A stretch of DNA of 24,192 bases, taken from IMG/VR virus record IMGVR_UViG_2713896773_000026; one strand, written 5' to 3'. Within the stretch, counting starts at the first letter, position 1; every line of letters starts with the position of its first letter. The DNA comes from a virus. Its lineage: Duplodnaviria; Heunggongvirae; Uroviricota; Caudoviricetes. A program made the translations under genes and the position numbers. Below are positions 1 through 21,572 of the stretch, in pieces. The notes beneath the pieces were generated by a model. That model made no database searches. It was not told the DNA's origin and saw nothing but the letters and a program-made list of their open reading frames with translations.

Positions 1-1053
1 TTACGGGGTAATGCCAACCGCTGCCGCCACTTTGTCGCCACTTGGCAGCGTTGCCAGAGGATTGAAACGGAGCGCCGTTTCCAGATGATCCGGTGCCAGA
101 TGTGCGTAACGCATAGTCATTTTTATATCGTGGTGTCCGAGAATTTTTTGTAAGGCCAGAATATTTCCACCCGACATCATGAAGTGCGCCGCAAACGTAT
201 GGCGCAGAACGTGTGTGAGTTGACCGCGAGGGAGCACGATAGACGTTTTTTCCATCACGGATAAAAATTGAAAATAGCAGTCTGTGAAGAAATTGAACCC
301 ATCAAGCGCCATGATCTCTTCGTAAAGCTCTTTACTGATAGGGATGCTTCTGTTTTTCTTCCCCTTCGTTCTGACAAAGGTAATTCGGTATTTGGTCACC
401 TGTGAGCGGGTAAGATTTACGGCTTCACGCCAGCGTGCGCCTGTGCTTAAGCATATCTTAACTACCAGTGCCAGAATTGGGTCCTGACGTTTGCAATCAG
501 CCAGCAATTCAACAATCTGCTCATGGGTAAGCCATGCCATCTCTTTTTCTGCGATGGTGAATTTTCGCATGTTCTCCAGTGGATTCGGATACGACCATTC
601 GCCCAGACGGGATAGTTCGCTAAAAACACTACTTAGATAGCTTTGCTCCAGGTTAATGGTGACCGGGCTTGCTCCTTTCTTCCATTTCTCGCTGAAGTAG
701 ATCTCGCCTGTCAGGCGTTTATCTCGATAGTGGGCAAACATTTTAGAGGTGAGATCGGTTGCAAGAGGATTGCCCAGAGCGTCAACCATCAACAGCAATT
801 TGTCATAGACATGCTGCCCAGCTGTCAGAGATTTACCATGTAGTTTGAACCATAGCTCAACCACGTCTTTCAGTGTTCGACGATCCACTGATTCACCCAG
901 CCAGGGCTTTGCTTCGGTTTCTTCCATCGTGTGGCGCTCAAAAGCCAGTGCTTCGCCTTTGGTGGCGAATTGTTTACGCACACGACGCCCACTTCGTCCG
1001 GCGGGGTAACATTCACAAAGCCATTTCCCAGTGGTGAGTTTTCGTACTGCCAT
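1..1053 (-). CDS. int: Phage integrase (tyrosine recombinase, P2/186 Int family)
   Basis: C-terminal HxLRHTFA...Y catalytic region (HVLRHTFAAHF, MTMRYAHL). N-terminus MAVRKLTTGKW aligns with remembered P2 Int MAIKKLDDGRY; GGAGGG RBS upstream of the ATG at 1053. The longer ORF to 1209 is rejected. Confidence 0.9.
   Translation of the reverse strand: MAVRKLTTGKWLCECYPAGRSGRRVRKQFATKGEALAFERHTMEETEAKPWLGESVDRRTLKDVVELWFKLHGKSLTAGQHVYDKLLLMVDALGNPLATDLTSKMFAHYRDKRLTGEIYFSEKWKKGASPVTINLEQSYLSSVFSELSRLGEWSYPNPLENMRKFTIAEKEMAWLTHEQIVELLADCKRQDPILALVVKICLSTGARWREAVNLTRSQVTKYRITFVRTKGKKNRSIPISKELYEEIMALDGFNFFTDCYFQFLSVMEKTSIVLPRGQLTHVLRHTFAAHFMMSGGNILALQKILGHHDIKMTMRYAHLAPDHLETALRFNPLATLPSGDKVAAAVGITP
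19..40. repeat. attL: attL core (left copy of the 22-bp direct repeat cgctgccgccactttgtcgcca)
   Basis: 21/22 identical to 21338..21359; lies in the last codons of the integrase gene; flanks differ on both sides. Confidence 0.65.
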
Positions 1054-1241
1054 AAAAAATGCCCTCCAGTAGAGAGCATTTTTACTGTATGTATAACCAG
1101 TGTCAATGTATGAAATCCTACGACCATACATCTCACTGAAGCCATAATGAAGTTGGCTATTCTTTTTGCTATGTGAGCATGTAACTTTTGCGGTTAACCT
1201 GCGGCTCATTTTTATTTTAGACGCAGATATAAAAGCAAAAG

Positions 1242-1433
1242 TTATCGTGAGTTTTTAGTACAGATTTTTTTGGATTTACTAATAGTTCCATCATTGCAAA
1301 CAAATTTTCCATCGGAGGTACAGTGAGAGACCCCTCCCTTTTTCCCAGAACAAGGATAATTTTTAGCATAGGTAGTTAGTGGGCTTAATAACAAAGAGCA
1401 TGATAAAACCACAAAAAATACTTTACCAAGCAT
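1242..1433 (-). CDS. Small secreted Cys-rich protein (63 aa, signal peptide plus about 40-aa basic mature part with 4 Cys); moron in the cI-int operon
   Basis: Strong GGAGG RBS 5 nt upstream; hydrophobic N-terminus [23 protein letters not shown]; AT-rich relative to the flanking cI and int. Confidence 0.55.
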
Positions 1434-1448
1434 AGTTTCCTCCCGGTA

Positions 1449-2024
1449 TTATCTAACATATTTAACTGTTAAACTTATAATTTTACCAATTATTTCAATG
1501 TCTTCTATCTTACATTCGAAGGCTCTGTTTCCACCCTCGACGAAGATTCTTCCACCGGGTAAACGAGTAATGTCACGGATCGTTACTTCGCCATCAATAC
1601 TTATTACCCATTTACCATCACGTATGTCATCAAATTCTTTATCACAAATAAATTCAGAATTGTTATCTGTGATGACAAAAGGTTTTTTAAACGTAGAGGG
1701 TAGAAATCTCTTATCAAAAATATAAAAACCGTCTTCACGCAAGGCACCATCAGATAATACATATTTAGCAACTTCCATAGTATTTGTATTACCTGAAGTT
1801 TGCTTTGAACCATGTCCGGTTGTGAGCCAATTAAGCGAGGTGCCCGTTTCAAGGGCGCACTGGATTACCCATTCTGCTGGGAATGAGTCACGCATGTAGC
1901 GTGTGGCGAGTGTACTTTTAGAGATTCCTAAATGATCGCACAACGCCTGTCGAGTCTTGAATCCATAAGCTTCTACCATGCGCTCTATGGCGCCTCGTCC
2001 GCCTTTCTCCAAATTCATGGTCAC
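1449..2024 (-). CDS. cI: CI-type immunity repressor (N-terminal HTH, C-terminal oligomerisation domain), 186 CI-like
   Basis: 191 aa; HTH-like segment QALCDHLGISKSTLATRYMRD; position between int and the divergent apl/cII operon. Confidence 0.8.
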   Translation of the reverse strand: MTMNLEKGGRGAIERMVEAYGFKTRQALCDHLGISKSTLATRYMRDSFPAEWVIQCALETGTSLNWLTTGHGSKQTSGNTNTMEVAKYVLSDGALREDGFYIFDKRFLPSTFKKPFVITDNNSEFICDKEFDDIRDGKWVISIDGEVTIRDITRLPGGRIFVEGGNRAFECKIEDIEIIGKIISLTVKYVR

Positions 2025-2041
2025 TCCAAGTGAACTTTTAT

Positions 2042-2070
2042 CTTGACGATTTCACTGTGCGATCGTATGT
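2042..2070 (+). promoter_or_regulatory. Candidate early lytic promoter pR (-35 TTGACG, 17-bp spacer, -10 TATGTT) reading into apl-cII
   Basis: Sigma70-like hexamers with 17-bp spacing in the cI/apl intergenic region; imperfect inverted repeats around it (GTGAAC ... GTTCAC) could be operators. Confidence 0.4.
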
Positions 2071-2143
2071 TTATGGTGTTCACAAAATACAAACGATCCG
2101 TATTCGTCCTGATTAATCATCATTAAACGAGGAATGTTGCATC

Positions 2144-2365
2144 ATGAGACCTAACATTTCAATCACTCTTACCACGCCTCATGTGACTATTGAACGCTAT
2201 AGCGAGCTGACAGGGCTATCCATCGATACCATCAATGACATGTTGGCTGATGGACGCCTTATCCGTCACCGTCTGCGCAAAGATAAAAAACGCGAAAAAG
2301 TGATGATCAACATAGCAGCAATGACCGTTGATGCGCTTTCAGAATGCAATCTAAACCTTAATTAG
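2144..2365 (+). CDS. apl: Apl/Cox-like excisionase and transcriptional regulator
   Basis: 73-aa basic protein, first gene of the rightward early operon divergent from cI, as in 186/P2. Confidence 0.65.
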
Positions 2366-2397
2366 TTCGATTCTGAAATACATCAGAGGCATTGACC

Positions 2398-2907
2398 ATG
2401 TTTGATTACCAAGTTTCCAAACATCCACATTTTGATGAAGCCTGTCGTGCATTTGCACTGCGCCACAATCTGGTGCAACTGGCAGAACGTGCAGGCATGA
2501 ATGTGCAGATTCTGCGGAACAAGCTGAACCCAGCTCAGCCTCATTTATTAACCGCACCAGAAATCTGGCTGCTTACCGATCTGACTGAAGATTCAACGCT
2601 GGTAGATGGTTTTCTGGCACAGATTCATTGTCTGCCATGTGTACCGATTAATGAGGTGGCAAAAGAGAAACTGCCACATTACGTCATGAGTGCAACCGCA
2701 GAGATCGGGCGTGTTGCTGCAGGTGCGGTGTCTGGCGATGTAAAAACCTGTGCCGGTCGTCGTGATGCTATCAGCAGCATTAACTCTGTAACACGACTGA
2801 TGGCGCTGGCTGCTGTTTCATTGCAGGCCCGTTTACAGGCTAATCCTGCGATGGCGAGTGCAGTTGATACCGTGACTGGCCTCAGTGCTTCATTCGGTTT
2901 GCTGTGA
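2398..2907 (+). CDS. cII: CII-like lysogeny establishment regulator
   Basis: 169 aa from the ATG at 2398 (AGAGG RBS); position after apl; length matches 186 CII. Confidence 0.65.
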
Positions 2908-2914
2908 GGTGCTT

Positions 2915-3211
2915 ATGCTGACGAAAGAACCATCATTTGCATCGCTGCTGGTAAAACAAAGCCCGGCAATGCACTACGGTCACGGCTGGATCACGGGTGA
3001 GGATGGAAAACGCTGGCATCCATGTCATTCACAAGATGAATTGCTGTCTGAATTGACCACGAGGAAACGGAGAAAGTCCAAATGTATGCGGCAGAAAGTG
3101 AAGTGGTTTATCAGTTTCGTTACAGAGGGGAGAGTTATTCAGTACCTGAAGATGATTTGCTCTGTTGCTATCCGTCATTGTCGGGCGATGGCAGTTACTT
3201 TTTCACGTTAA
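2915..3211 (+). CDS. Hypothetical early protein (98 aa); overlaps the next ORF in another frame
   Basis: ATG at 2915 with GAGG RBS right after the cII stop; the frame stays open to 3211. Confidence 0.35.
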   Translation: MLTKEPSFASLLVKQSPAMHYGHGWITGEDGKRWHPCHSQDELLSELTTRKRRKSKCMRQKVKWFISFVTEGRVIQYLKMICSVAIRHCRAMAVTFSR

Positions 3212-3306
3212 AGGATGGGACGTTTTTACGGGGAGAGCAGTTTAAAGAGACGATACGAAAAAATGTATCTCCTCTTGAGCGTTACCGTAAGAACAAAGAA
3301 CGATAG
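3082..3306 (+). CDS. Hypothetical early protein (74 aa)
   Basis: ATG with GGAGA RBS; protein-like composition (MYAAESEVVYQFRYRGESYSVPEDD...). Confidence 0.5.
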   Translation: MYAAESEVVYQFRYRGESYSVPEDDLLCCYPSLSGDGSYFFTLKDGTFLRGEQFKETIRKNVSPLERYRKNKER

Positions 3307-3328
3307 CTGCGTTTGGGGGATATGAAGT

Positions 3329-3670
3329 ATGGCAATTAATGGCGCTGCAGCAACTGTTCCATTAAGCCCCGGTGAACGCCTGAATGGACTTAATCACATT
3401 GCGGAGTTAAGGGCGAAAGTTTTTGGCCTGAATATTGAGTCAGAGCTTGAGCGGTTTATTAAAGATATGCGTGATCCACGGGATATCAATAATGAACAAA
3501 ATAAACGGGCACTGGCTGCCATATTCTTTATGGCAAAAATTCCAGCTGAACGTCATAGCATCAGCATTAATGAGCTGACCACTGACGAAAAGCGGGAGCT
3601 GATTAAAGCAATGAATCATTTTCGTGCAGTGGTGAGCTTATTTCCCAGACGGCTAACCATGCCGAATTAA
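3329..3670 (+). CDS. Hypothetical phage early protein (113 aa)
   Basis: ATG preceded by GGGGGA; compact operon context. Confidence 0.6.
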   Translation: MAINGAAATVPLSPGERLNGLNHIAELRAKVFGLNIESELERFIKDMRDPRDINNEQNKRALAAIFFMAKIPAERHSISINELTTDEKRELIKAMNHFRAVVSLFPRRLTMPN

Positions 3671-3737
3671 CCAACTAATGAAATTAATGGCGTAAACCCG
3701 CCGGGCATCCCTTTATCTAAATTCAGGAGAATTGATT

Positions 3738-3971
3738 ATGCGTAATATTGAAACCTTCACGACTAAAACCGGACCGGATGACGCAGGGCTTAATATTTTA
3801 CTGACAGAGGCTCGTCTGGAAGAACGCCGGGCAAGGGCTGAAGCAATGGCTGCTCGCCTTGATAGCCTGGCGTGTCATATCTCATCCCGCCAGCTAAACC
3901 ACGTGGAAGCGGCAGAACTGCTGCGCGTGACTGCTGAAGCAATCCAGAACGAAGCGCAGGAGATCCACTAA
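3738..3971 (+). CDS. Small phage protein (77 aa), DUF2732-like
   Basis: AGGAGA RBS 6 nt upstream of the ATG at 3738; its stop overlaps the next start (TAATG). Confidence 0.55.
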   Translation: MRNIETFTTKTGPDDAGLNILLTEARLEERRARAEAMAARLDSLACHISSRQLNHVEAAELLRVTAEAIQNEAQEIH

Positions 3972-4198
3972 TGGCTGATGCAATGGATCTCGTACAGCAG
4001 CGCGTTGAAGAAGAACGCCAGCGCCATATCCGTGCAGCCCGTGCCAAATCACCGGGCGTGTCACGCGTACTTTGCATTGAATGTGAAGCGCCAATTCCGC
4101 CAGCACGACGCCGCGCCATTCCGGGAGTGCAGCTTTGCATTACCTGTCAGGAAATCGCAGAACTGAAAGGCAAACATTACAACGGAGGTGCTGTATGA
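3971..4198 (+). CDS. TraR/DksA-family C4 zinc-finger protein
   Basis: CxxC-X17-CxxC (CIECEAPIPPARRRAIPGVQLCITC); 75 aa; typical of P2-like early regions. Confidence 0.8.
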   Translation: MADAMDLVQQRVEEERQRHIRAARAKSPGVSRVLCIECEAPIPPARRRAIPGVQLCITCQEIAELKGKHYNGGAV

Positions 4199-5052
4199 GC
4201 ACCATCCTGAAATGGGCGGGAAATAAAACCGCCATTATGCCAGAACTGAAAAAATACCTTCCTGCTGGCCCGCGACTGGTTGAACCTTTCGCGGGTTCCT
4301 GTGCTGTGATGATGGAAACGGATTATCCCAGCTATCTGGTTGCGGATATTAATCCTGATTTAATCAACCTCTATAAAAAGGTTGCCGCTGATTGTGAATC
4401 GTTTATATCTCGCGCCAGAGTTTTATTTGAGATCGCAAACAGGGAGGTGGCTTATTACAACATAAGGCAGGAGTTTAACTGCTCAACTGAAATTACTGAT
4501 TTCATGAAAGCGGTATATTTCCTGTATCTCAATCGTCACGGTTACCGTGGTTTATGTCGCTATAACAAGAGCGGGCATTTCAACATTCCCTACGGTAATT
4601 ATAAAAATCCGTATTTCCCTGAAAAAGAACTTCGCACATTTGCAGAAAAAGCCCAGCGAGCAACGTTTATCTGCGCCAGCTTTGATGAAACGCTGGCGAT
4701 GTTGAAGGCGGGAGATGTGGTGTATTGCGATCCGCCATATGACGGTACGTTTTCCGGCTATCACACTGATGGTTTCACTGAAGATGACCAGTATCACCTG
4801 GCATCCGTTCTTGAACATCGGTCATCAGAAGGACATCCGGTCATTGTTTCTAACAGTGACACATCCCTGATCCGTTCGCTGTATCGCAATTTTACTCACC
4901 ACTATATCAAGGTAAAACGCAGCATCGGTGTGGCAGCTGGCGAGGGTAAATCAGCAACAGAAATCATTGCTGTTTCCGGGCCGCGCTGCTGGATGGGATT
5001 TGATTATTCGCGTGGCGTGGATAGTTCTGCCGTGTACGGAGTACGTGCATGA
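4195..5052 (+). CDS. dam: DNA adenine methyltransferase (Dam-like, orphan MTase)
   Basis: N-terminal AdoMet motif LKWAGNK...EPFAGSCAV and catalytic DPPY motif ([10 protein letters not shown]); ATGA overlap with the upstream stop. Confidence 0.9.
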
Positions 5053-7463
5053 GTCATGCCGATATGAACAACTGCTGCGGCTTTAACGAGGCTGCCGCAG
5101 CATTCTCATGGAACAGCCCGAAAAAGGCCATTAACCCTTATCTGGACCCGGCGGAAGTTGCGCCGGTTTCTACGCTTTCAAACCTGATCACTCTGTACGC
5201 TGCCGATAACGAGCAGGAACAGTTGCGCCGCGAGGCACTGAGTGATCAGGTCTGGGAGCGTTATTTCTTTAATGAATCACGTGATCCTGTCCAGCGCGAA
5301 ATGGAGCAGGATAAGCTCATTAGCCGGGCAAAGCTGGCGCATGAGCAGCAGCGTTTTAATTCAGACATGGTCATTCTGGCGGACGTCAACGCCCAGCCTT
5401 CCCATATCAGCAAGCCGCTGATGCAACGTATTGAATACTTCAGCAGCCTGGGCAGGCCAAAGGCTTATTCCCGCTATTTACGTGAGACGATTAAGCCATG
5501 TCTGGAACGACTGGAGCATGTACGCGACAGTCAGCTATCTGCATCTTTTCGCTTTATGGCAAGCCATGAAGGGCTGGACGGCCTGCTGATCCTGCCTGAA
5601 ATGAGTCAGGATCAGGTGAAACGCCTGTCCACCCTGGTAGCTGCGCATATGAGTATGTGCCTTGATGCAGCTTGTGGTGATTTGTATGCCACCGATGACG
5701 TTAAGCCAGAAGAAATCCGCAAGACATGGGAAAAGGTGGCAGCGGAAACCCTGCGTCTGGATGTCATCCCACCTGCGTTTGAGCAACTCCGTCGGAAAAG
5801 AAACCGCCGTAAACCCGTGCCCTATGAACTCATTCCGGGTTCGCTGGCGCGTATGTTGTGCGCCGACTGGTGGTATCGGAAATTATGGAAGATGCGTTGC
5901 GAATGGCGGGAAGAGCAGTTGCGCGCAGTTTGCCTGGTCAGCAAAAAAGCATCTCCTTATGTCAGCTATGAAGCCGTGATGCATAAACGTGAGCAGCGCC
6001 GTAAGTCGCTGGAGTTTTTCCGTTCTCATGAACTGGTGAACGAAGACGGCGACACGCTGGACATGGAGGATGTGGTAAACGCCAGCAGCAGCAACCCTGC
6101 GCATCGCCGCAATGAGATGATGGCCTGTGTTAAAGGTCTGGAGCTTATCGCGGAAATGCGCGGTGACTGCGCCGTTTTCTACACTATCACCTGTCCGTCG
6201 CGTTTCCATTCCACGCTAAATAACGGCAGACCAAACCCGACCTGGACAAACGCGACGGTAAGACAAAGCAGCGATTATCTGGTCGGCATGTTTGCTGCAT
6301 TTCGTAAGGCGATGCACAAAGCCGGGTTGCGCTGGTATGGCGTGCGGGTGGCTGAGCCGCATCATGATGGCACAGTTCACTGGCACCTGTTGTGTTTCAT
6401 GCGCAAAAAAGACCGCCGTGCCATCACTGCATTACTGCGTAAGTTTGCCATCCGTGAAGACCGCGAGGAGCTGGGCAATAACACTGGGCCGCGCTTTAAG
6501 TCTGAGTTGATTAACCCGCGCAAAGGAACGCCGACAAGCTACATCGCGAAATATATCAGTAAGAACATTGACGGTCGTGGTCTGGCTGGCGAGATCAGCA
6601 AGGAAACGGGTAAATCTCTGCGTGATAACGCTGAATACGTGAATGCCTGGGCGTCTCTGCATCGTGTTCAGCAATTCCGCTTCTTTGGTATTCCGGGGCG
6701 TCAGGCTTACCGTGAACTTCGCTTGCTGGCTGGTCAGGCGGCAAGGCAACAGGGTGACAAAAAAGCAGGTGCGCCGGTACTGGATAACCCGCGTCTTGAT
6801 GCCATTCTGGCTGCTGCTGATGCTGGTTGTTTTGCCACCTACATCATGAAGCAGGGCGGCGTACTGGTTCCCCGTAAATATCACCTCATCAGAACCGCTT
6901 ATGAAATTAACGAAGAGCCGACCGCCTATGGCGATCACGGCATTCGTATTTATGGCATCTGGTCACCCATTGCAGAGGGCAAGATCTGCACTCATGCAGT
7001 GAAGTGGAAAATGGTTCGTAAAGCCGTTGACGTTCAGGAGGCGGCAGCCGACCAGGGCGCTTGCGCCCCTTGGACTCGTGGCAATAACTGTCCCCTTGCT
7101 GAAAATTTGTACCAACAAGGGAAAGACAAATCAGCTGATGGGGATACCAGAACGGATATCACCCGTATGGATGACAAGGAGTTGCACGATTACCTGTACA
7201 GTATGAACAAAAAAGAACGCCGGGAACTGGCTGCAAGGTTACGCCTGGTGAAACCGAAACGGCGTAGAGACTACAAACAGCGAATTACAGACCATCAACG
7301 ACAGCAGCTCGTCTATGAACTGAAGTCCAGAGGATTTGATGGCAGCGAGAAAGAGGTCGATTTACTCCTTCGCGGCGGCAGCATTCCATCAGGAGCAGGC
7401 CTGCGTATTTTCTATCGGAACCAGCGTTTGCAGGAAGATGATAAGTGGCGGAACCTGTATTAA
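5049..7463 (+). CDS. repA: Replication initiation endonuclease (P2 gpA / 186 RepA family, rolling-circle HUH)
   Basis: 804 aa; HUH motif [13 protein letters not shown] and tyrosine motif [10 protein letters not shown]; ATGA overlap with dam. Confidence 0.9.
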
Positions 7464-7555
7464 TTACGCGGATTAACAATTCGTGCTCTTAATAATACCA
7501 GGCATATCAGGCTGATGAACGTAAAAAAACGTTTTACATCAGTAAGATTATTATA

Positions 7556-7575
7556 TACTGTAAATATAAACAGTG
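7556..7575. promoter_or_regulatory. LexA (SOS) box TACTGTAAATATAAACAGTG overlapping a candidate -10 (TATACT) upstream of the tum-like gene
   Basis: CTGT-N8-ACAG with an AT-rich centre matches the LexA consensus taCTGTatatatatACAGta. Confidence 0.6.
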
Positions 7576-7616
7576 GTTATGTATACAGTATTGCTTGTGG
7601 TGTCATAGGAGGAAAG

Positions 7617-7805
7617 ATGCAGGACTATTTTTTGGAGTCTTTGAAGCTCCAACGCATTGATTTTTTTCTTAAGCTTGTAGCGGCTGGTGAGTGTAGTGAT
7701 GAAGAGAAGGGGCTGGCCCTGCAGTGGGTTTCTGAACTGACAGATGAACTCATGGCAAAAATCAGAAGCCACGAATACAACCGCTCAATGGATGTCATCA
7801 GCTGA
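7617..7805 (+). CDS. Small SOS-controlled protein (62 aa), possible Tum-like antirepressor module
   Basis: AGGAGG RBS 4 nt upstream of the ATG at 7617; immediately downstream of the LexA box; position equivalent to 186 tum. Confidence 0.5.
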   Translation: MQDYFLESLKLQRIDFFLKLVAAGECSDEEKGLALQWVSELTDELMAKIRSHEYNRSMDVIS

Positions 7806-7815
7806 GGGGACTTTT

Positions 7816-8049
7816 ATGCGCATTGAAATAATGATCGATAAAGAGCAGAAGATTAGCCAGTCTACCCTGGACGCCCTTGAATCAGAGCTTTACCGCAATC
7901 TGCGCCCCCTGTATCCCAAAACGGTAATTCGTATCCGTAAAGGTAGCTCTAACGGTGTGGAACTGACCGGACTGCAACTGGACGAAGAAAGGAAACAAGT
8001 GATGAAAATTATGCAGAAGGTGTGGGAAGACGACAGCTGGCTGCATTAA
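7816..8049 (+). CDS. DinI-family protein (77 aa)
   Basis: MRIEIMIDKEQKIS...VWEDDSWLH resembles E. coli DinI (MRIEVTIAK...TWESADDWF); GAGGGGA RBS. Confidence 0.75.
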   Translation: MRIEIMIDKEQKISQSTLDALESELYRNLRPLYPKTVIRIRKGSSNGVELTGLQLDEERKQVMKIMQKVWEDDSWLH

Positions 8050-8433
8050 GAAACGTTGCTGGCGTCTGAACTTGTTTCTGGCGTCAGCAAGGTTGAACAA
8101 CGAGCTATGCGAGGCGTTAGCCATCTGATCAAAAGACATCAAATATCATATTGTATATCGTGGTCAAACGCTGGAAACAATCATTCCCGATCAGAGGGGC
8201 TTCTTTCAATGTCCAAAAGAGTGAGATAGAGGATACAGGATGGGAAGAGCTTTTGATTAATTATCGTCCAAGTTTTTCAAAAGCTTCTTATCTGGCGGTC
8301 GATACATGATTTACTGTTGGATATGGTATTTAAAATTAATCTTTACACTGTGGTATATGCAGAATAGGATATTATCAATACAATCAAACTGTTTTCATAC
8401 GGTTATTAATATTGCAATGTTATAGGTAATGTC

Positions 8434-9552
8434 ATGTATCTTTTCAAGTATTACCGTCCGGACTTCTTCTTCGAGAAAGCTATTCGTTATAATGAATTAT
8501 ATTTTTCCGCTCCTGCGCAATTGAATGATCCCAATGATCTCAATATAGATTATCGCTTCGATAATAAATTGAAATTATGGGATATTTTATTGCGTTCTCC
8601 TTGCGATAAATCCTATAAAAATTTGAGTCACATATTGGATTTGAGTGATTTGAAAATACATAAGGGATTGAATCGTATTTTTAGAGGAAAAAAAATAAAA
8701 AGTAGCATTGAGTCATTAGATAGCCTGTTTGACTCACACGTTGATGAGATACGTAAGATCATAGATGATGGTTTACTACCTATCAATGTGATTAATTCTG
8801 CTATTTATGGAAATATTCCTGAACCACGCCAATATTTGGTTTCACTTTGCGAGAACAGTATCAAAGAAAGGTTGTATAGGAAGATAGTTCCTGCAGTATT
8901 CAGTGTGTCATTTTCAGCTAATGCGTTAGATCGTATGATGTGGGCGCATTATGCTGCTGGCTTTAGTGGTTGTGTTGTGATTTATGAAACGCAGGATTTT
9001 AATATTGATGGTATACCCTATACTGGAATGAAGCTAAGAGAAAATTTATTTTCATCAGATAAATTTAATTTTCCAGTTAAGCCAATAAAATATAGTAATC
9101 AGGCTAAAGAGGTTTCACTTCTAGACCCAAGCGCAAATGTTGCAGAGTTATTTTTAACTAAAAATAGATTTTGGAGATATGAAGCTGAATATCGAATGTT
9201 TATTCCGGAGGCAAATGCAGGAATAGGGAGTGAGCGGCATGTTCAAAGACGCGTAAATCGAAATATTGGACATATTTTTCATCATGATGCTAATGTTGTT
9301 AAAGGGATCATTTTTGGTCCTAGAATGTGTGAAATGAAAAAAGAAAGCATATGGAATTGTATCAAGTCAAATATGGAGAATTCAAATTCAACAATATGTT
9401 ATTTTTTTGACTCTGAGTTATTAGCATCAGGAAAGATTACTATTTCAAAAGGGCAACGAGCGGAAAAAATGAAAAATTTCACTTTGTTCAGGAACAAGTT
9501 AAGTCAGACGGAAATGGCTAAAGTTTTGAAGGAAATTGGCATTACGAACTAA
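8434..9552 (+). CDS. AT-rich cargo gene: 372-aa protein with a DUF2971-like N-terminal motif; candidate stand-alone anti-phage or accessory protein
   Basis: Long ORF, markedly AT-rich versus the prophage backbone; N-terminus LFKYYRPDFFFEKAIRYNELYFSAPAQLNDPND resembles the DUF2971 signature as remembered; own terminator downstream. Confidence 0.6.
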   Translation: MYLFKYYRPDFFFEKAIRYNELYFSAPAQLNDPNDLNIDYRFDNKLKLWDILLRSPCDKSYKNLSHILDLSDLKIHKGLNRIFRGKKIKSSIESLDSLFDSHVDEIRKIIDDGLLPINVINSAIYGNIPEPRQYLVSLCENSIKERLYRKIVPAVFSVSFSANALDRMMWAHYAAGFSGCVVIYETQDFNIDGIPYTGMKLRENLFSSDKFNFPVKPIKYSNQAKEVSLLDPSANVAELFLTKNRFWRYEAEYRMFIPEANAGIGSERHVQRRVNRNIGHIFHHDANVVKGIIFGPRMCEMKKESIWNCIKSNMENSNSTICYFFDSELLASGKITISKGQRAEKMKNFTLFRNKLSQTEMAKVLKEIGITN

Positions 9553-9618
9553 CCTAACAACAGTGCATGCCTATGCTGCCTGAATTTGCATGACCGTTTG
9601 AGGATCGTTTTTGCTAAG

Positions 9619-9642
9619 GCCCGCCAGAACTGGCGGGCTTTT
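9619..9642 (+). terminator. Rho-independent terminator after the DUF2971-like gene
   Basis: GC stem GCCCGCC/GGCGGGC with a 6-nt loop, followed by TTTT. Confidence 0.6.
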
Positions 9643-9687
9643 GCGTGGATCAGGCACCTGCATGAAAACCACTACACAAAGCGGGCA

Positions 9688-9706
9688 GGCGTGGCGGGGA
9701 TACGAG
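9688..9706. other. cos: cos-like sequence (GGCGTGGCGGGGATACGAG) in a GC-rich patch
   Basis: First 13 nt match the remembered 186 cohesive end GGCGTGGCGGGGA; the location between the accessory region and the portal side fits the P2/186 prophage map. Confidence 0.35.
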
Positions 9707-9719
9707 CGCGCGCAGCGGG

Positions 9720-9748
9720 TGGAAACTCAGATTTGAATGTTGTATAAA
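9720..9748 (+). promoter_or_regulatory. Candidate retron operon promoter (-35 TGGAAA, 17 bp, TG-adjacent -10 TATAAA)
   Basis: Hexamers about 30 bp upstream of the effector start; weak -35. Confidence 0.25.
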
Positions 9749-9777
9749 AGATGGGATCATTCTGAGGAAAAGTGGAT

Positions 9778-10683
9778 ATGAAAAAGAAAACTATTCCGGA
9801 GTTGCAGAAGCAAAATCTGGCAAATTTAATTAAAAGTCGGCTTTTTCAACAGAAAAATAAAAATAAAGTTACTGTTTTCCTTTGCGGGGGCGATTTGAAT
9901 GATCCGTTTTTTTGTAGAAATAAAGTTAAAAGAGTGTTGGAAACACATCCCAAAATAGAAATATTCTATCCTGAGGAGTTGTTTGATGAGCTTTTGTATG
10001 GACAAGGTCAGCATAGTCTTTTAAGTTTGGAGAATATTTTAGCTGATTCAGTCGATGTTATTATTATTATTCCTGAAAGCCCAGGGTCTTTCGCTGAATT
10101 GGGCGCATTTTCAAATAATGAAAAACTGTGCAAAAAAATGATATGTCTTCAGGATGACAAATTCAAACTTAAAAAAAGCTTTCTTAATTATGGGCCTATA
10201 AAACTGCTTCGGCGTGCTAATAGCGGTGCAGTATTGCGAGGAGATTTGTCGACTCTTGAAAGCTTGAGTACAGGTAAAGCTTTTTATAATAGAATTATAA
10301 AAAGTATTAATGACATCAAAAAAAATAACCCAGTTAATCACTCAATAGATAATATTCTTCACGCTCGGCGTTTTATACTGCCATGTATATATTTGATGGA
10401 TGGTATAGATAATATACTTCTATATGAGCTATTACATTTGGTGACTAAGAAAGATGCTATTCTTTGTGAAATTATCGTTAAGTCTGTTATTTCAAGCTTG
10501 ATTAAAGAGTCAATAATTAGGCGTTCAGTTCAAGGATACCATATTACAGAAATTGGTATGCAATACGTTCTTGAGCATTTTGATCGAAAGGCTTTGGACA
10601 ATCTACGACTGGATATGATGAACTTCGAAAATCGTGGTAAAACAATACTCCACTATGATAGGATGCGTTTTGCGCACCCTTAG
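9778..10683 (+). CDS. Retron effector, nucleoside 2-deoxyribosyltransferase-like (NDT) N-terminal domain with a C-terminal putative DNA-binding domain
   Basis: VTVFLCGGDLNDP and IIIIPESPGSFAELGAF motifs typical of the NDT fold; GAGGAAA RBS; 3' end overlaps the retron a1 repeat; AT-rich. Confidence 0.7.
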   Translation: MKKKTIPELQKQNLANLIKSRLFQQKNKNKVTVFLCGGDLNDPFFCRNKVKRVLETHPKIEIFYPEELFDELLYGQGQHSLLSLENILADSVDVIIIIPESPGSFAELGAFSNNEKLCKKMICLQDDKFKLKKSFLNYGPIKLLRRANSGAVLRGDLSTLESLSTGKAFYNRIIKSINDIKKNNPVNHSIDNILHARRFILPCIYLMDGIDNILLYELLHLVTKKDAILCEIIVKSVISSLIKESIIRRSVQGYHITEIGMQYVLEHFDRKALDNLRLDMMNFENRGKTILHYDRMRFAHP

Positions 10684-10831
10684 CGAGTGGCTTCTCCGGA
10701 AGTTCACTGGACAGTGTTTCGCTGTCCTACATACAATCTGAAGTTTTACCAGTTCCCTCATTGAAAGGAGAACATCTCCCGATGTTCTCCTTTCACTTCG
10801 GAATCTGATTTTTATGACGTAAGGGTGCGCT
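10671..10831 (+). ncRNA. msr-msd: Retron msr-msd non-coding RNA (msDNA template), flanked by a1/a2 inverted repeats
   Basis: a1 TGCGCACCCTTA (10671..10682) and a2 TAAGGGTGCGC (10820..10830) form an 11-bp inverted repeat; msr hairpin GGACAG-tgtttcg-CTGTCC (10709..10727); msd hairpin AAAGGAGAACATC-tccc-GATGTTCTCCTTT (10764..10793); ends 2 nt before the RT start. Confidence 0.8.
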
Positions 10832-10832
10832 C

Positions 10833-11807
10833 ATGACTTCCGCAACACCATCTCAGGTTTTTCGCTTACGCAATCTTGGATTGCCTGTTATGTCCTCTTT
10901 AGAGGATATGTCTAGAGAAATGCGTTTATCAGTAGACATACTCCGGTTGTACATTTATCGTGCTGACAAATACTATAAGGTTTATTCGTTGCCAAAAAGA
11001 GATGGCAAGAGATCCCGCATCATTTCACAGCCATCACGTGAGCTGAAGGCATTGCAAGCTTGGGTGTTAAGAAACATCCTTGATAAGTTACATTCATCCC
11101 CATTTTCCAAAGGCTTTGAAAAAGGGCAATCAATATTAAATAATGCCAGCCCACATGTAGGAGCTAACTATGTATTAAATATTGATTTAGAAGATTGTTT
11201 TAATACTATTCTGATAGAGAAAATCTATACTGTTTTTCATTCTCTGGGGTATAACTCTACTATTTCTAATGCTTTAGCAAGATTGTGTTCATTTAATGGT
11301 TCGCTACCTCAAGGTGCACCATCTTCTCCAAAGATTGCGAATCTTGTTTTAACTAAATTAGATTATAGAATACATGGATATGCAGGTAGTAAGGGGATCG
11401 TATTTACTCGATATGCCGATGATTTGACTTTATCTGCTCAATCTTTAAAAAAAATACTTAAAGCTAAGTCATTTGTATGCTCTATAATACCAAGTGAATC
11501 TTTGAAGGTTAATTATAATAAAGTTGCGATTCATGGCCCCAAAGCAAGGAAGGAGGTTACTGGGCTCGTTTTATCTATTGATAATGTTGGAGTTGGCAGA
11601 ATACGTTATCGCGAAATTAGAAGTAAGATCCATTATCTGGCAGTAAAAAGAAATTCTGATTTCGAACATGTTAAAGGACTTATTGCGTTTGTTAAAAGTG
11701 TAGACAAGAAAAACTATAGAAAATTGATGACTTTCTCAAATAAAATGTCTGAAGCATATGGGGTTGATCTAAGTGTTCTTTTTCCTAAAAACAAAAAGGC
11801 CATTTAA
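10833..11807 (+). CDS. ret: Retron-type reverse transcriptase
   Basis: 324 aa; RT motifs NIDLEDCF, LPQGAPSSP, YTRYADDLTLS (YADD at 11412..11423) and the retron-specific VTG motif (RKEVTGLV). Confidence 0.9.
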   Translation: MTSATPSQVFRLRNLGLPVMSSLEDMSREMRLSVDILRLYIYRADKYYKVYSLPKRDGKRSRIISQPSRELKALQAWVLRNILDKLHSSPFSKGFEKGQSILNNASPHVGANYVLNIDLEDCFNTILIEKIYTVFHSLGYNSTISNALARLCSFNGSLPQGAPSSPKIANLVLTKLDYRIHGYAGSKGIVFTRYADDLTLSAQSLKKILKAKSFVCSIIPSESLKVNYNKVAIHGPKARKEVTGLVLSIDNVGVGRIRYREIRSKIHYLAVKRNSDFEHVKGLIAFVKSVDKKNYRKLMTFSNKMSEAYGVDLSVLFPKNKKAI

Positions 11808-11817
11808 TGGCCTTTTT
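11793..11817. terminator. Bidirectional hairpin terminator between the convergent RT and portal genes
   Basis: Palindrome AAAAAGGCCAT-tta-ATGGCCTTTTT with A/T runs on both sides; overlaps the RT stop. Confidence 0.55.
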
Positions 11818-11822
11818 GTTTA

Positions 11823-12854
11823 TTAGGTAATTGAATAACTCACGAAATTAATAACTTCTTCATTTATCCATTCGTTCAGCTCTTCTAGTCTTTTTTGTAA
11901 AGGGATGAGTTCATTCCTCACAAAAACATTAGCAGCTTTCTCTACATCCCCAAATCCTCCAACATTATTAGGCATAATCCCCATCATTTGCGGTGGCACA
12001 CGATGCGCCGCCATCATGTCATCCCGGCTCACGTTCTTGATGTTCAGAAACTCATCCTTCGCCGCGACCTCTGACAACGGGATAATCTGAAGCCCGTCCT
12101 TTTTGCCGTTAGGCGAGTACATAAACAGGTTGCGGAAGTTACCCGGTCCTTTGGCGCTTTTCATCGCGTTGCGGAGGTTGTTCACGTCCTCCTGGTTCTG
12201 CGCGGCATCGGTCATGTACATGATGAAGCCAGCATGACTGCCGTTTATGTAATACTTTCGACGGAACAGCGTGGCGGACTCATTGAGCAGGGCGGACGGA
12301 ATAGCAGAAAGATAGCCGGGCAGGCCATAGATCTCCTGATTTATGTCCGGTTCCATCAGATGGAAAATGCTGCCTTTCGTGAACTGATACGGTTGCGTGG
12401 TCATGCCGTATTGCACAAACCAGTAGGTATCTAGGTCTAATCCACGTCGGGTGTATTTTGCCAGCGCAGGCTCAAGAGCGATAACTTCACCGAATCGGTT
12501 CGTGCGTTTCTCCAGGTAGGCGTTACCAAATACCAGATAGTCCTGCACAAAACGCGAAAAAGCCTGCTGGCTGAGCAGCGGATGAGGGATATAGGTACTG
12601 GTCAGAATGTTGCACTTTACTGCAATCGGGGAACTGTGATGCACGGCGGCGCGGAAGGTGCGCGCCAGTCCGTCAAAGCTGACGGGCGGCTCATACCAAC
12701 GGTCCATCTGTACGCATTCCACATAATCCAGCAGTTCTCGGCGGTCCAGAACAGGAACGGGATCGCCGAAGCTGAATGCTTCGGCTGTAGTTTGACTTTT
12801 AAGCTGGATCTGTTTCGTCGCCGCAGCGCGGTTCTTCTTACTCTTTCCCATCAA
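11823..12854 (-). CDS. Q: Portal (capsid portal protein, P2 gpQ family)
   Basis: 343 aa; position and orientation next to the terminase gene as in P2 (Q-P leftward operon). Confidence 0.85.
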   Translation of the reverse strand: MMGKSKKNRAAATKQIQLKSQTTAEAFSFGDPVPVLDRRELLDYVECVQMDRWYEPPVSFDGLARTFRAAVHHSSPIAVKCNILTSTYIPHPLLSQQAFSRFVQDYLVFGNAYLEKRTNRFGEVIALEPALAKYTRRGLDLDTYWFVQYGMTTQPYQFTKGSIFHLMEPDINQEIYGLPGYLSAIPSALLNESATLFRRKYYINGSHAGFIMYMTDAAQNQEDVNNLRNAMKSAKGPGNFRNLFMYSPNGKKDGLQIIPLSEVAAKDEFLNIKNVSRDDMMAAHRVPPQMMGIMPNNVGGFGDVEKAANVFVRNELIPLQKRLEELNEWINEEVINFVSYSIT

Positions 12855-14554
12855 AAAATCTCCACAATATTGCTGGTATTGGCGGATTCGCCCTGCAGCG
12901 GTTCGTTAAACAGTGCGTGCATCGTTGCCCAGGCCAGATCGGCGTGGCTGGCTTCTTCGCTGCGGCTGGCTTCATAGGTCGGGCGGTTGCCACTGGCGGT
13001 GGTGGCGCGACGGATTGCCATAAAGGACTGCGCTATGTCGGTGTGTCCGGCGTCAAACTCCAGACGGCGGTGGCTGATAATGTCGTAGGCCTTGAGTACC
13101 AGGGCGTTTTTAACGTTGGGGTTGTAGACAAACTCCCGGACGGCAGGAAAAAACGCTTTCACGTTCTCGTAAACCCCGTGACCAACGCCGGTTGAGTCGA
13201 TACCGATATAGGTCACGTTGTACTGTTCGGTCAGTTTTTTGATGGCGTCAGCCTGGGCGCGGAAGTCCATTCCGCGCCACTGGTGACGCTCAAGAATGCG
13301 GAACTTACCGCCCGGCACGGCTGGCGGCGCCACCACCACGCATCCGGCGCTGTCGCCGTTCTGCGTACCTTTCGCCGGGTCATATCCGATCCACACTTCG
13401 CGCCAGCCAAACGGGCGCAGGGCCAGTGCATGAAAGTCGGTCCAGACTTCCCAACTGTCCACCATGCACGCCTGCAGCTCGCTGAGTGGGAACACAGACG
13501 CGAGATCGTCCACGAACTCACACATCAGCAGGTTCTGGTATTCGTCCGGGCTGTACTCCATGCGCAACTGGTCGAGGTCGAACAGGTTACAGCCGCCGCG
13601 CACCGCATCTTCCACAGTGACTATCTGGCGGTACTGCCCGTCTGCGCACAGCAGGCCGGGGGCCAGATTGCTGTGGGACAGGTCGATGTCCACCTTATCG
13701 GCTTTGTTGCGCCCTCGGTTGAACAGCGCACCGGACCAGAACGGATAAGCACTGTGTGTCAGGCTGGATGGCGTGGAAAAATAGGTTTGTCGCCATTTTT
13801 TGTGAATAGCCATACCGGAAGCCACTTTGCGCAGCTCCTGGAATTTCGGTATCCAGAAATATTCATCCAGATACAGGTTGCCGTGGTAACTCTGGGCCGT
13901 GCGGGCATTGGTGCCGAGGAAGTACAGCGTGGCCCCGTTAGGAAGCACCATCGGATCGCCTTTCAGCTCCACCTCCACTTCTTTGGCGAAGTCGATGATG
14001 TACTGCTTAAAGACGTGGGCCTGAGCCTTGCTGGCGGAAAGGAAAATCTGGTTACGCCCGGTTAGCAGGGCGTCAATCAGGGCTTCACGGGCAAAATAGA
14101 AGGTCGCGCCGATCTGGCGTGACTTCAGCAGGTTGCGGATGCGGTTGGTTTTTCCGGCTTCCCACCAGTGGCGCTGGTAGTTGAACATGGAGGAATGGAA
14201 GATTTCTTCCAGCTTCTCAATCTGTTCATCGGTGAAAACGTTCTTTTCCGGCTGACGGCGCGGGCCTTTGTTGCGGTTGGCGACGTTAGGGTTTAAGTCG
14301 GCTTCGTTGCCGCCATTGTTAAACTTGCCGATCCGCGCATGGCGCTCCGACTGGCGCGCCAGCAGGTCAATCTCTTTGAAATCTTTCCCTTCTTTGTGCT
14401 CCTTCATAATGAGCTGGCAGTAGCGTGCGGCGGTGGTGAGCTGCATCTGATCCAGCGGCCCATAGTCACCCCACTTGTCGCGTTTTTTCCAGCTGTGAAC
14501 GGTTGCAACTTTCTCGCCCAGCATTTCAGCAATGCGGGCTATCTGCCCAGACAC
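12851..14554 (-). CDS. P: Terminase large (ATPase) subunit, P2 gpP family, 5'-truncated at a deletion junction and probably non-functional
   Basis: 567 aa; nuclease-domain-like segments; the upstream in-frame sequence is antisense to the sheath gene, so the native N-terminus and promoter are missing; the GTG start is an ORF-caller artefact. Confidence 0.8.
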
Positions 14555-21359: not shown

Positions 21360-21415
21360 TCGTTAAAAAACAGTGTTTCTAACATCATGATTTTAAACAG
21401 CTTAAATTTCAGGCA

Positions 21416-21460
21416 ACAAAAAACCCATCAACCTTGAACCGAAATGGCGGGGTTGATGGG
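21416..21460 (-). terminator. Candidate rho-independent terminator downstream of ybjL
   Basis: 10-bp stem CCCATCAACC/GGTTGATGGG (17-nt loop) followed on the minus strand by a U-run (plus-strand A6). Confidence 0.4.
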
Positions 21461-21572
21461 CTCCACAAAATGGGGACATCAAAGAAAAGCAGTGGCACTA
21501 ATTAAGACTGATGCCCTGCGGAAAAGTTCTGCGGTTGTGCAAAAAAATTTCATTTTCAGGGCAACTTCAGTT

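Follow-up and report, generated by a model that had tools for sequence, protein, structure and literature searches.

The module that lies directly downstream of the replication gene in this 24,192-nucleotide stretch of DNA (hereafter the window) very probably belongs to a Fels-2-like prophage of E. coli from the P2 family (Peduoviridae), in which it would serve as the SOS (tum) operon. With the same high confidence we read it as a LexA-repressed operon of two genes, one encoding a small antirepressor, TumA, and the other a DinI-like protein, TumB. On the + strand, the replication endonuclease gene A (5049–7463; Pfam Phage_GPA, 1.4e-127; included for context only) is followed by a promoter-like site with a LexA box (7533–7590, the box itself at 7556–7575), a 62-aa ORF (7617–7805) and a DinI-family ORF (7816–8049), in line with the first-pass annotation, which had noted a 62-aa ORF followed by a DinI-like gene. 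This position, directly 3' of gene A, is syntenic with that of the corresponding operons of phages 186, PSP3 and Fels-2. Since a split Tum operon has already been described for Fels-2 and PSP3, both in publications and in GenBank, the arrangement is not new, and its concept is fully covered by earlier knowledge of 186, PSP3, Fels-2 and the Gifsy phages. What the present analysis contributes is a colicin-type pair of operators, the optional nature of the DinI component, a pairing between TumA and CI types and the absence of ~12.3 kb from the prophage.

We examined the promoter region and its LexA operator. Box 1, the distal box (TACTGTAAATATAAACAGTG, 7556–7575, + strand), agrees with the consensus at 17 of 20 positions and holds the only perfect CTGT-N8-ACAG of the 24-kb window. 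It is likewise the window's sole match to the 20-nt LexA consensus with three or fewer mismatches, and none of 100 shuffles gave one. The left arm of this box, TACTGT (7556–7561, + strand), is a candidate -10 hexamer by analogy with phage 186, in whose record the -10 element of promoter p95 is annotated as TACTGT, again the left arm of a LexA box, in the same layout. A -35 hexamer equivalent to that of p95, TTTACA (7533–7538, + strand; 5/6 to TTGACA), lies 17 nt before it. The earlier proposal of a near-consensus LexA operator overlapping a candidate -10 element is thus borne out, both by motif scoring and by the spacing of the two hexamers. Of 40 genomes from different species, 38 carry box 1 before the homologous ORF despite divergent flanks, as does Fels-2; of the two loci without it, one is cut by a contig end and the other is degenerate. 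TTTACA or TTCACA stands at the 17-nt distance in 31 of 40 loci with box 1 (the window and Fels-2 counted in), and the -35/-10 geometry is conserved across loci. A generic promoter and terminator scan returned neither a + strand promoter nor a terminator for the operon; the scanner missed the promoter site because TACTGT matches TATAAT at only three of six positions.

Overlapping box 1 is a second, proximal LexA box (CAGTGGTTATGTATACAGTA, 7571–7590, + strand; 15/20), which the first-pass annotation had missed. At a fixed offset of +15, box 2 scores at least 13/20 in 25 of 40 loci, against a chance level at which 3 of 8000 random 20-mers reach 13, and the scores are bimodal. Together the two boxes read CTGT-N8-ACAGTGG-N8-ACAGT (7558–7589), that is, two SOS boxes sharing a core. 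Judged by this sequence, they constitute a colicin-type dual overlapping SOS operator, to which LexA would be expected to bind. Among the matches listed, the dual operator stands directly before a TumA-family ORF in 103 of 120 viral contigs, or in 106 if three truncated copies are included.

The module is flanked by two potential hairpins. One lies between gene A and the tum promoter and overlaps the -35 element (7511–7543, + strand); RNA folding of 7455–7545 gives -21.4 kcal/mol, with a z-score of -3.6 relative to shuffles. This predicted structure may terminate or insulate transcription arriving from the early operon, although it is not a canonical intrinsic terminator, as no T-run follows it. 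Terminator-like palindromes also precede the LexA boxes of Gifsy prophages (Lemire 2011, PMC3121763). The other is an imperfect GC-rich hairpin after tumB (8052–8094, + strand), with an 11-bp stem, a z-score of only -1.7 and no T-run, which sits at the edge of the conserved module and may tentatively be taken to mark where the operon stops. Klebsiella phages resemble the window up to ~8047 and E. coli phages up to ~8121.

The tumA-like gene, presumed to encode an antirepressor of the prophage CI, starts at ATG 7617 on the + strand and runs to 7805. Reading of the sequence identified a Shine-Dalgarno motif, AGGAGG (7607–7612, + strand), 4 nt before this start codon, and an equivalent GGAGG is kept in related loci. 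The ORF is a real coding gene under strong purifying selection (median dN/dS 0.075 at dS about 1), and conservation of the protein begins exactly at Met 7617. We rejected an upstream-extended ORF of 96 aa (7515–7805), since it reads through its own promoter and the extension is not conserved. Many database entries call a longer ORF of 84–106 aa that reads through the box. The small gene is labelled “hypothetical protein” in most genome records and “levan regulatory protein” in some.

We then asked how the 62-aa protein relates to Tum of phage 186. The first-pass annotation had suggested a split or modular Tum and had named alignment with 186 Tum as a test of this reading. Pairwise BLASTP yielded no alignment between the 62-aa protein and 186 Tum, between it and PSP3 TumA, or between PSP3 TumA and 186 Tum, and there is no Pfam family for it; the link to Tum thus rests on profiles and synteny. 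With PHROG profiles, the 62-aa protein matches phrog_698 at 3e-37, and 186 Tum matches this same family at 2.4e-5, positions 7–44 aligning with 7–44, the hits being reciprocal. Comparison of a broad family of the 62-aa protein with the family of the 186 Tum N-terminal region using hhalign gave a probability of 96.5% (E 7e-10), with residues 2–46 in register. This result needed the broader alignment obtained by exhaustive search: a narrow one, built from sequences at least 81% identical, gave a probability of only 34% (P 4e-4). Over the 45 aligned residues the two families share a conserved Cys in the inter-helix loop and an ALxWxxEL motif. An HMM built from relatives of the 62-aa protein alone scored 186 Tum at 33.3 bits. 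The most distant member was PSP3 TumA, the sole split form for which activity has been reported, at 3.9 bits against this HMM and 15.9 bits against a 186-type HMM. Similarity to Tum is therefore present, and the profile methods turn a reading that BLASTP alone would have made look refuted into a supported one, in which the 62-aa protein and the N-terminal half of 186 Tum are remotely homologous.

AlphaFold predicts TumA to be a two-helix hairpin (pLDDT 88; helices 2–23 and 28–61). A Foldseek search of the PDB with this model found only generic helical hairpins, the best at a non-significant E of 0.46, so the fold is uninformative on function. A sequence search of solved structures found no TumA relative.

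The second gene, tumB (7816–8049, + strand), encodes a 77-aa protein of the DinI family (Pfam DinI, PF06183, E 6.6e-23) and has its own ribosome-binding site, GAGGGG (7804–7809). The match covers the full profile (residues 14–76 on positions 1–63 of 63) and reaches 81.3 bits against a gathering cut-off of 24.2. The protein is also 41% identical to residues 71–145 of 186 Tum, which agrees with the DinI-like character of the C-terminal part of 186 Tum and supports the view that the DinI-like ORF is homologous to that half of Tum. Thus, the modular part of the initial reading stands: both ORFs have counterparts in the halves of Tum, as judged by profiles, genomic position, promoter layout and the presence of a 186-type CI. 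The word “split”, by contrast, probably reverses history. Of the 40 species-level loci, 22 keep the pair adjacent; in the other 18, a TumA-like ORF follows a LexA box and the 16 kb searched contain no DinI ORF, which indicates that TumA can stand alone. Nearly all of the 88 clusters of the TumA family are short stand-alone proteins and none has a fused DinI domain, while Tum is fused in 78 of 80 loci of the 186 type, the fused form being seen only in the 186 lineage. Since stand-alone small ORFs are the norm in the family and the fusion was seen in one lineage only, 186 Tum was more likely derived by fusion.

The presumed target of TumA is encoded on the - strand (1449–2024). It is a CI immunity repressor of the 186 type, 32% identical to 186 CI over 175 aa (full length; E 3e-38), and it bears the annotation ‘phage repressor protein CI’ in the identical prophage of KFu015. 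In 99 of 101 loci the type of TumA corresponds to the clade of CI, including nine in which the gene A lying between the two differs in type; at locus L026, the window's TumA type is paired with a CI of the 186 clade. P2, which has a short C repressor and no 186-type CI, is without tum. TumA conservation, at 65–97%, is far above that of CI, whose mean within the clade is 46%. Such a difference is unusual for a specific binder and its presumed target, unless the contact is made with the N-terminal domain of CI, which is better conserved (57–67%).

We propose a mechanism that builds on what is established here or in the cited work, namely the conserved sequence elements, the homology between the two ORFs and the halves of Tum, and the DNA-damage induction of the Fels-2 operon. 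In uninduced cells, two LexA dimers probably occupy the overlapping boxes and would cover the -10 element and the start region, keeping the operon tightly off. Upon DNA damage, RecA-stimulated self-cleavage of LexA would free the promoter and the two small proteins would be made; in Salmonella, the mutagen MX raised expression of the Fels-2 operon STM2726–2728 by a factor of 5.5 to 14.8 (PMC2225428). TumA most likely then binds the uncleavable 186-type CI and blocks its operator binding, which would turn on the early lytic operon. TumB, by virtue of its family membership, most likely acts on RecA filaments, tuning the strength or duration of the SOS response, and would be dispensable for antirepression. 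In the 186 record, full-length Tum ‘inhibits CI DNA binding’, while the role given for the truncated DinI-like products is only to ‘modulate SOS induction’. According to Lemire 2011 (PMC3121763), tum is split by a stop codon in Fels-2 and PSP3, the PSP3 upstream gene has antirepressor activity (known only through a personal communication quoted there), and Fels-2 is under 186-like antirepressor regulation (citing Bunny 2002).

Other explanations of the locus can be weighed against these data. Tum might work as two subunits, with TumA and TumB assembling non-covalently and neither alone inactivating CI. The fusion of both parts on one polypeptide in phage 186, and in 78 of 80 186-type loci, would fit such an assembly, as would the adjacency of the pair in 22 of 40 loci and the spacing of only 10 nt between the window's tumA and tumB, which are probably co-translated. 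It is nevertheless improbable given the 18 of 40 loci with a TumA-like ORF and no DinI ORF in 16 kb, and given that the PSP3 upstream gene alone is reported as an antirepressor and that induction of Gifsy prophages did not change significantly when dinI was deleted (PMC3121763); in 186, too, internal starts yield a separate DinI-like product. We consider it similarly unlikely that the 62-aa product is an SOS-induced small protein with a different role, for example as a modulator of a host process, which resembles the Tum N-terminal region only through a shared hairpin scaffold. The antirepressor role of the Fels-2-type protein is a presumed one, the predicted two-helix hairpin is generic (best PDB E 0.46), TumA is conserved much above CI and one locus combines mismatched CI and TumA types. 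Yet the homology extends in register along 45 residues, among them the loop Cys and the ALxWxxEL motif, the genomic position and promoter are identical to those of tum in 186 and PSP3, and the TumA type stays with the CI clade despite replacement of gene A. Moreover, the antirepressor mechanism of Fels-2 is described as like that of 186 (PMC3121763, citing Bunny 2002).

The least credible explanation, to which we give almost no weight, is that the LexA box arose by chance as an AT-rich palindrome and that gene calling produced the small ORF as an artefact. The generic scan did report no + strand promoter here, and the calls of 84–106-aa ORFs through the box point to uncertain annotation. Against this, no shuffle out of 100 produced such a box, and 38 of 40 species have it with constant spacing to a conserved -35 element; the reading frame has a dN/dS of 0.075, a strong Shine-Dalgarno motif and conservation from Met 7617 exactly; and DNA damage induces the orthologous Salmonella operon. 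Conservation and dN/dS effectively refute both a chance palindrome and a non-coding ORF.

The operator and pairing data together suggest a wider, more tentative hypothesis, which we regard as possible rather than probable. Fels-2-type tumA promoters may carry the colicin-type dual operator as a lineage-specific and possibly horizontally shared cassette that would set a high, all-or-none SOS threshold. The TumA families would form a specificity code with the CI clades that is kept when gene A is replaced, and DinI would be an optional add-on, fused only in the 186 lineage. Among searchable papers, we found neither a dual operator at tumA promoters nor the TumA-CI pairing described. Both the double operator of colicin type and the pairing of CI with TumA offer modest leads on induction thresholds and antirepressor specificity.

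Of 5426 complete E. coli genomes, 1124 (~21%) carry the tum module, which was found in Salmonella, Klebsiella, Citrobacter, Enterobacter, Pantoea and Erwinia as well. It determines if P2-like prophages of a very common family are awakened by DNA damage, of which SOS-triggering antibiotics are one source, and use of the name “TumA-like antirepressor” would improve both prophage annotation and the prediction of inducibility. The prophage in the window lacks ~12.3 kb relative to the matching prophage of E. coli KFu015, including head and lysis genes, so induction here could not yield phage. This gap falls around 14541 and may be a real deletion.

Of the known systems, Fels-2 of Salmonella LT2 is closest. 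Its STM2728 and the neighbouring DinI gene (STM2726.1 in the phage record) encode proteins 95% and 100% identical to TumA and TumB of the window, respectively, the operon likewise follows gpA, and the dual LexA operator is the same but for two bases in box 2. The two differ in host (Salmonella versus E. coli), and the window's prophage is without its head and lysis genes. After its DinI gene, Fels-2 has a 732-nt ORF that corresponds in position and length to 186 orf97, with no similarity between them at tblastn E<=1e-3; at this site the window instead has a DUF2971 gene and a retron, and an Rfam search of this cargo region found no retron RNA. PSP3 also has two separate genes after gene A, tumA being annotated as ‘similar to 5' end 186 tum; UV induction of prophage’ and tumB as ‘similar to dinI and 3' end of 186 tum’. 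Its TumB is 78% identical to that of the window, whereas its TumA is distant from the 62-aa protein (aligned at ~22% identity, without a BLASTP hit and with low HMM scores) and its CI is a different, longer repressor (861-nt gene). In phage 186, as in the window, a LexA box forms the -10 element of a promoter 3' of gene A, and the CI belongs to the same family. Unlike the window's proteins, the two domains of 186 Tum (146 aa) are fused, with only ~20% identity between its N-terminal domain and the 62-aa protein; 186-type loci have a single LexA box, the overlapping pair occurring in 0 of 80, and in 186 orf97 follows tum.

The operons of Gifsy-1/2/3 (GfoA, GftA, GfhA) follow the same logic, a LexA-repressed DinI homologue together with a small antirepressor of an uncleavable repressor, but dinI comes first, the phages are lambdoid and the repressor is of another family (PMC3121763). 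For the operator, the closest parallels are those of colicins N and R, which have the same order of left arm, N8, core, N8 and right arm and to which the window's operator is 86–88% identical over ~43 nt. The dual overlapping SOS-box structure of colicin operators, which bind two LexA dimers cooperatively, has been described as keeping a lethal function tightly off (PMC11332147; PMC2994835). Colicin operators control toxin genes on Col plasmids, whereas that of the window would control a presumed prophage antirepressor; in colicin N, the -35 element (TTGACA) lies further upstream and the boxes are placed just after the -10 element, whereas in the window they form it. The likeness of the window's operator to the colicin operators may reflect either common descent or convergence.

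The window is a P2/186-like prophage with an integrase (1-1209, minus strand) and a 186-type CI immunity repressor (1449-2024, minus strand; 32% identity to 186 CI over 175 residues, E 3e-38), followed in gene order by CII, Fil, DUF2732, DksA-like zinc finger and Dam methylase genes and then by the replication endonuclease gene A (gpA, 5049-7463; Pfam Phage_GPA, 1.4e-127). Just before gene A, and running into its start, is a gene for a D12-class N6-adenine DNA methyltransferase (4135-5052), where phage 186 instead carries a PAPS-reductase-like orf. Immediately 3' of gpA lies the SOS module, whose LexA box, 62-aa ORF and DinI-like gene are all present, to the base, where the first-pass annotation had placed them.

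The 62-aa ORF (ORF62, or tumA; 7617-7805), with AGGAGG 4 nt before its ATG, is a real gene: in 494 pairwise comparisons over its first 55 codons, dN/dS has a median of 0.075 and dS averages about 1, and conservation begins exactly at Met 7617. Many database entries give an ORF of 84-106 aa started upstream, through the promoter and LexA box; we rejected these longer versions, whose extensions are not conserved. We likewise saw no support for the name 'levan regulatory protein' used in some records and in UniRef. Ten bases past the ORF62 stop begins the 77-aa DinI-like ORF (tumB; 7816-8049; Pfam DinI, 6.6e-23), which is 41% identical to residues 71-145 of 186 Tum, the LexA-controlled antirepressor of phage 186.

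A candidate promoter for the pair (TTTACA at 7533-7538, a 17-nt spacer and TACTGT at 7556-7561) reproduces p95, the annotated SOS promoter of 186, although a generic promoter scanner found no plus-strand promoter there. As proposed initially, a near-consensus LexA operator overlaps its -10 element: TACTGT is the left arm of LexA box 1 (TACTGTAAATATAAACAGTG, 7556-7575), and p95 is annotated likewise. Motif scoring bore this out, box 1 being both the only site in 24 kb with at most three mismatches to the LexA consensus and the sole perfect CTGT-N8-ACAG in the window, and 0 of 100 shuffles yielded such a site. A chance match is further ruled out by conservation in a set of 40 species-level loci running from Escherichia via Citrobacter, Enterobacter and Serratia to Pantoea, Erwinia and Izhakiella. 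CTG-N10-CAG lies within 100 nt 5' of the homologous ORF in 38 of these 40, the other two being cut by a contig end and carrying a degenerate box, respectively. Box 1 scores range from 15 to 19 of 20, and of the 40 loci with box 1, a set that includes the window and Fels-2, 31 have TTTACA or TTCACA at exactly 17 nt on its 5' side. Since the flanking sequence varies freely, box 1 and its promoter constitute a phylogenetic footprint. We also note that 7511-7543, downstream of gene A, can form a hairpin reaching into the -35 element of the tum promoter; the fold of 7455-7545 has a z of -3.6 and no T-run follows the hairpin, which may shield the SOS operon from transcription running on out of the early operon.

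A second LexA box (CAGTGGTTATGTATACAGTA, 7571-7590; 15/20) begins 15 nt into box 1. At this fixed offset, 25 of the 40 loci score at least 13, a value reached by only 3 of 8000 random 20-mers, and the box 2 scores are clearly bimodal across loci. In 186-type loci, by contrast, the box is single (80/80).

BLASTP of ORF62 against 186 Tum returned no match, so the alignment suggested in the first-pass annotation failed in its pairwise form, but profiles recovered it. ORF62 and the 186 Tum N-terminus match the same three PHROG families in opposite order (ORF62: phrog_698 3e-37, phrog_8554 1.6e-8, phrog_1993 1.7e-3; Tum: phrog_1993 1e-22, phrog_8554 1.4e-11, phrog_698 2.4e-5), with Tum positions 7-44 falling on phrog_698 positions 7-44. 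By hhalign, a broad ORF62 alignment matched the 186-type N-domains with 96.5% probability (E 7e-10, columns 2-46 on 2-46), and 186 Tum scored 33.3 bits against an HMM built from ORF62 relatives alone. Searched exhaustively by HMM, 1.84 billion representatives yielded 88 clusters, nearly all of them stand-alone proteins of 50-75 aa; motifs such as ERIELIARL...C..DKELAL.WIAEL in the remoter clusters visibly form a bridge to ERVEMIARL...C.ERDREIALNLIAEI in 186. In the AlphaFold model (pLDDT 88), ORF62 folds as a hairpin of two helices whose connecting loop contains the conserved Cys26, and a fold search with this model returned generic hairpins only. Together with the identity of the DinI-like ORF to the C-terminal half of Tum, the profile links therefore support the initial idea of a split or modular Tum, and ORF62 is Tum-related, though not by pairwise search.

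Either a 186-like protein was split or two genes were fused. Stand-alone small ORFs predominate in every branch, and they include many 63-aa proteins that go by the name "Tum protein" and are closely related to the 186 N-domain. Fusions, 143-146 aa long, turned up in the 186 lineage alone, at 78 of 80 loci in a sample biased to linker-containing matches. For these reasons we regard two genes as the general state and 186 Tum as the product of a fusion that has occasionally been reversed. Such reversion from fused to split is suggested by several short 186-type Tum proteins (among P0121-P0240), whose ends, such as FPRHLLMKPLQRRAR, resemble the outcome of frameshifts in the linker of a fused protein. 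A related question is whether TumA and TumB form an obligatory two-subunit Tum. This is argued against by 18 of the 40 species-level loci, in which a TumA-like ORF and LexA box occur with no DinI ORF within 16 kb; TumA can therefore function without TumB, and DinI is an optional companion. According to the 186 record, full-length Tum "inhibits CI DNA binding", whereas products without the N-terminal half only "modulate SOS induction".

In the most likely model, whose binding steps we infer, LexA, probably as two dimers, would occupy the -10 and start region; DNA damage would lead to LexA self-cleavage and tumA-tumB transcription, upon which TumA would bind CI and keep it from its operators, the activity demonstrated for full-length 186 Tum, and TumB would act on RecA filaments. 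The CI clade matches the Tum type in 99 of 101 loci. Gene A sits between CI and tumA, and in nine loci with window-type TumA it has been replaced by a 186-type or third-type gene while the CI clade still matches, which points to selection for a matched CI-TumA pair and not mere linkage. An exception is Pantoea stewartii ATCC 8199 (NZ_CP046558; L026), alone among 32 loci in placing a Fels-2-type TumA (82% identical) beside a 186-clade CI (60% identity to 186 CI); it would be a natural test case for antirepressor specificity. In phage P2, which has a short C repressor and is not known to be SOS-inducible, gene A is followed by neither tum nor a DinI gene. A caution for this model is that TumA is much more conserved (65-97% identical) than CI (mean 46% within clade); the CI N-terminal domain is the best-conserved part of CI (57-67%) and may, speculatively, be the TumA contact surface.

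The conserved core stops at about 8047-8121, after tumB. Adjoining the tum operon is variable cargo (8434-11807), comprising a DUF2971 protein gene (8434-9552; match to PADLOC candidate PDC-S31) and a type II-A retron (St85 family) with an NDT-like effector (9772-10683; 2.6e-97) and a reverse transcriptase (10833-11807; 4.9e-123); the expected retron RNA had no Rfam family match. Positions 1-14541 are 100% identical to the E. coli KFu015 prophage, after which the window picks up 12.3 kb further along it and so lacks scaffold, capsid, lysis, baseplate and tail-fibre genes. This junction (14541/14542), which cuts into the 5' end of terminase gpP on one side and tail sheath FI on the other, is spanned by 0 of 5426 complete E. 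coli genomes in the collection, so either the prophage is defective or the join arose in assembly. Should the deletion be real, excision and replication could still be derepressed by SOS induction, but no phage could be made. The chromosomal flank is marked by the host sRNA RybB (21415-21493, minus strand; Rfam, 105 bits) and an Asp-Al_Ex/TrkA_C transporter (21573-23258, minus strand); in KFu015, rcdA (ybjK) lies on the other side of the prophage.

Among known systems, the 35-nt two-box element shares its design with the dual overlapping SOS boxes of small Col plasmids: an alignment of about 43 nt with the operators of colicin N and colicin R shows 86-88% identity (window 7556-7590 against L124 1201-1243 and L125 482-523). 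A passage of PMC11332147 quoting Gillor 2008 gives the colicin-type consensus as left arm-N8-core-N8-right arm with cooperative binding. Among the matches listed for CTGT-N8-MCAGTGG-N8-ACAGT, 103 of 120 viral contigs have a TumA-family ORF directly downstream, a count that is indicative only, the pattern being derived from the window's own promoter; three further contigs carry truncated TumA copies behind it. The gene pair itself recurs in Fels-2, where STM2728 is 95% identical to ORF62 and its DinI-like neighbour, noted as "similar to TumB [PsP3]", is 100% identical to that of the window. The PSP3 GenBank record describes tumA as "similar to 5' end 186 tum; UV induction of prophage" and tumB as "similar to dinI and 3' end of 186 tum", and a passage of Lemire et al. 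(PMC3121763) describes the split, resting on 2002 work and a personal communication. The mutagen MX elicited a response from the operon STM2726-STM2727-STM2728 in Salmonella that carries Fels-2, and STM2727, listed with the LexA regulon, rose 5.5-, 11.1- and 14.8-fold (PMC2225428); its numbering between STM2726 and STM2728 makes it presumably the DinI-like gene. Of 5426 complete E. coli genomes, 1124 match the module and 1082 cover at least 80% of it, with the annotation "hypothetical protein | DinI-like family protein". With the gene pair present in Fels-2 and its split described in the literature, both are already known; what this analysis adds is incremental, namely the colicin-type dual operator, the CI-TumA pairing and the optional status of DinI.
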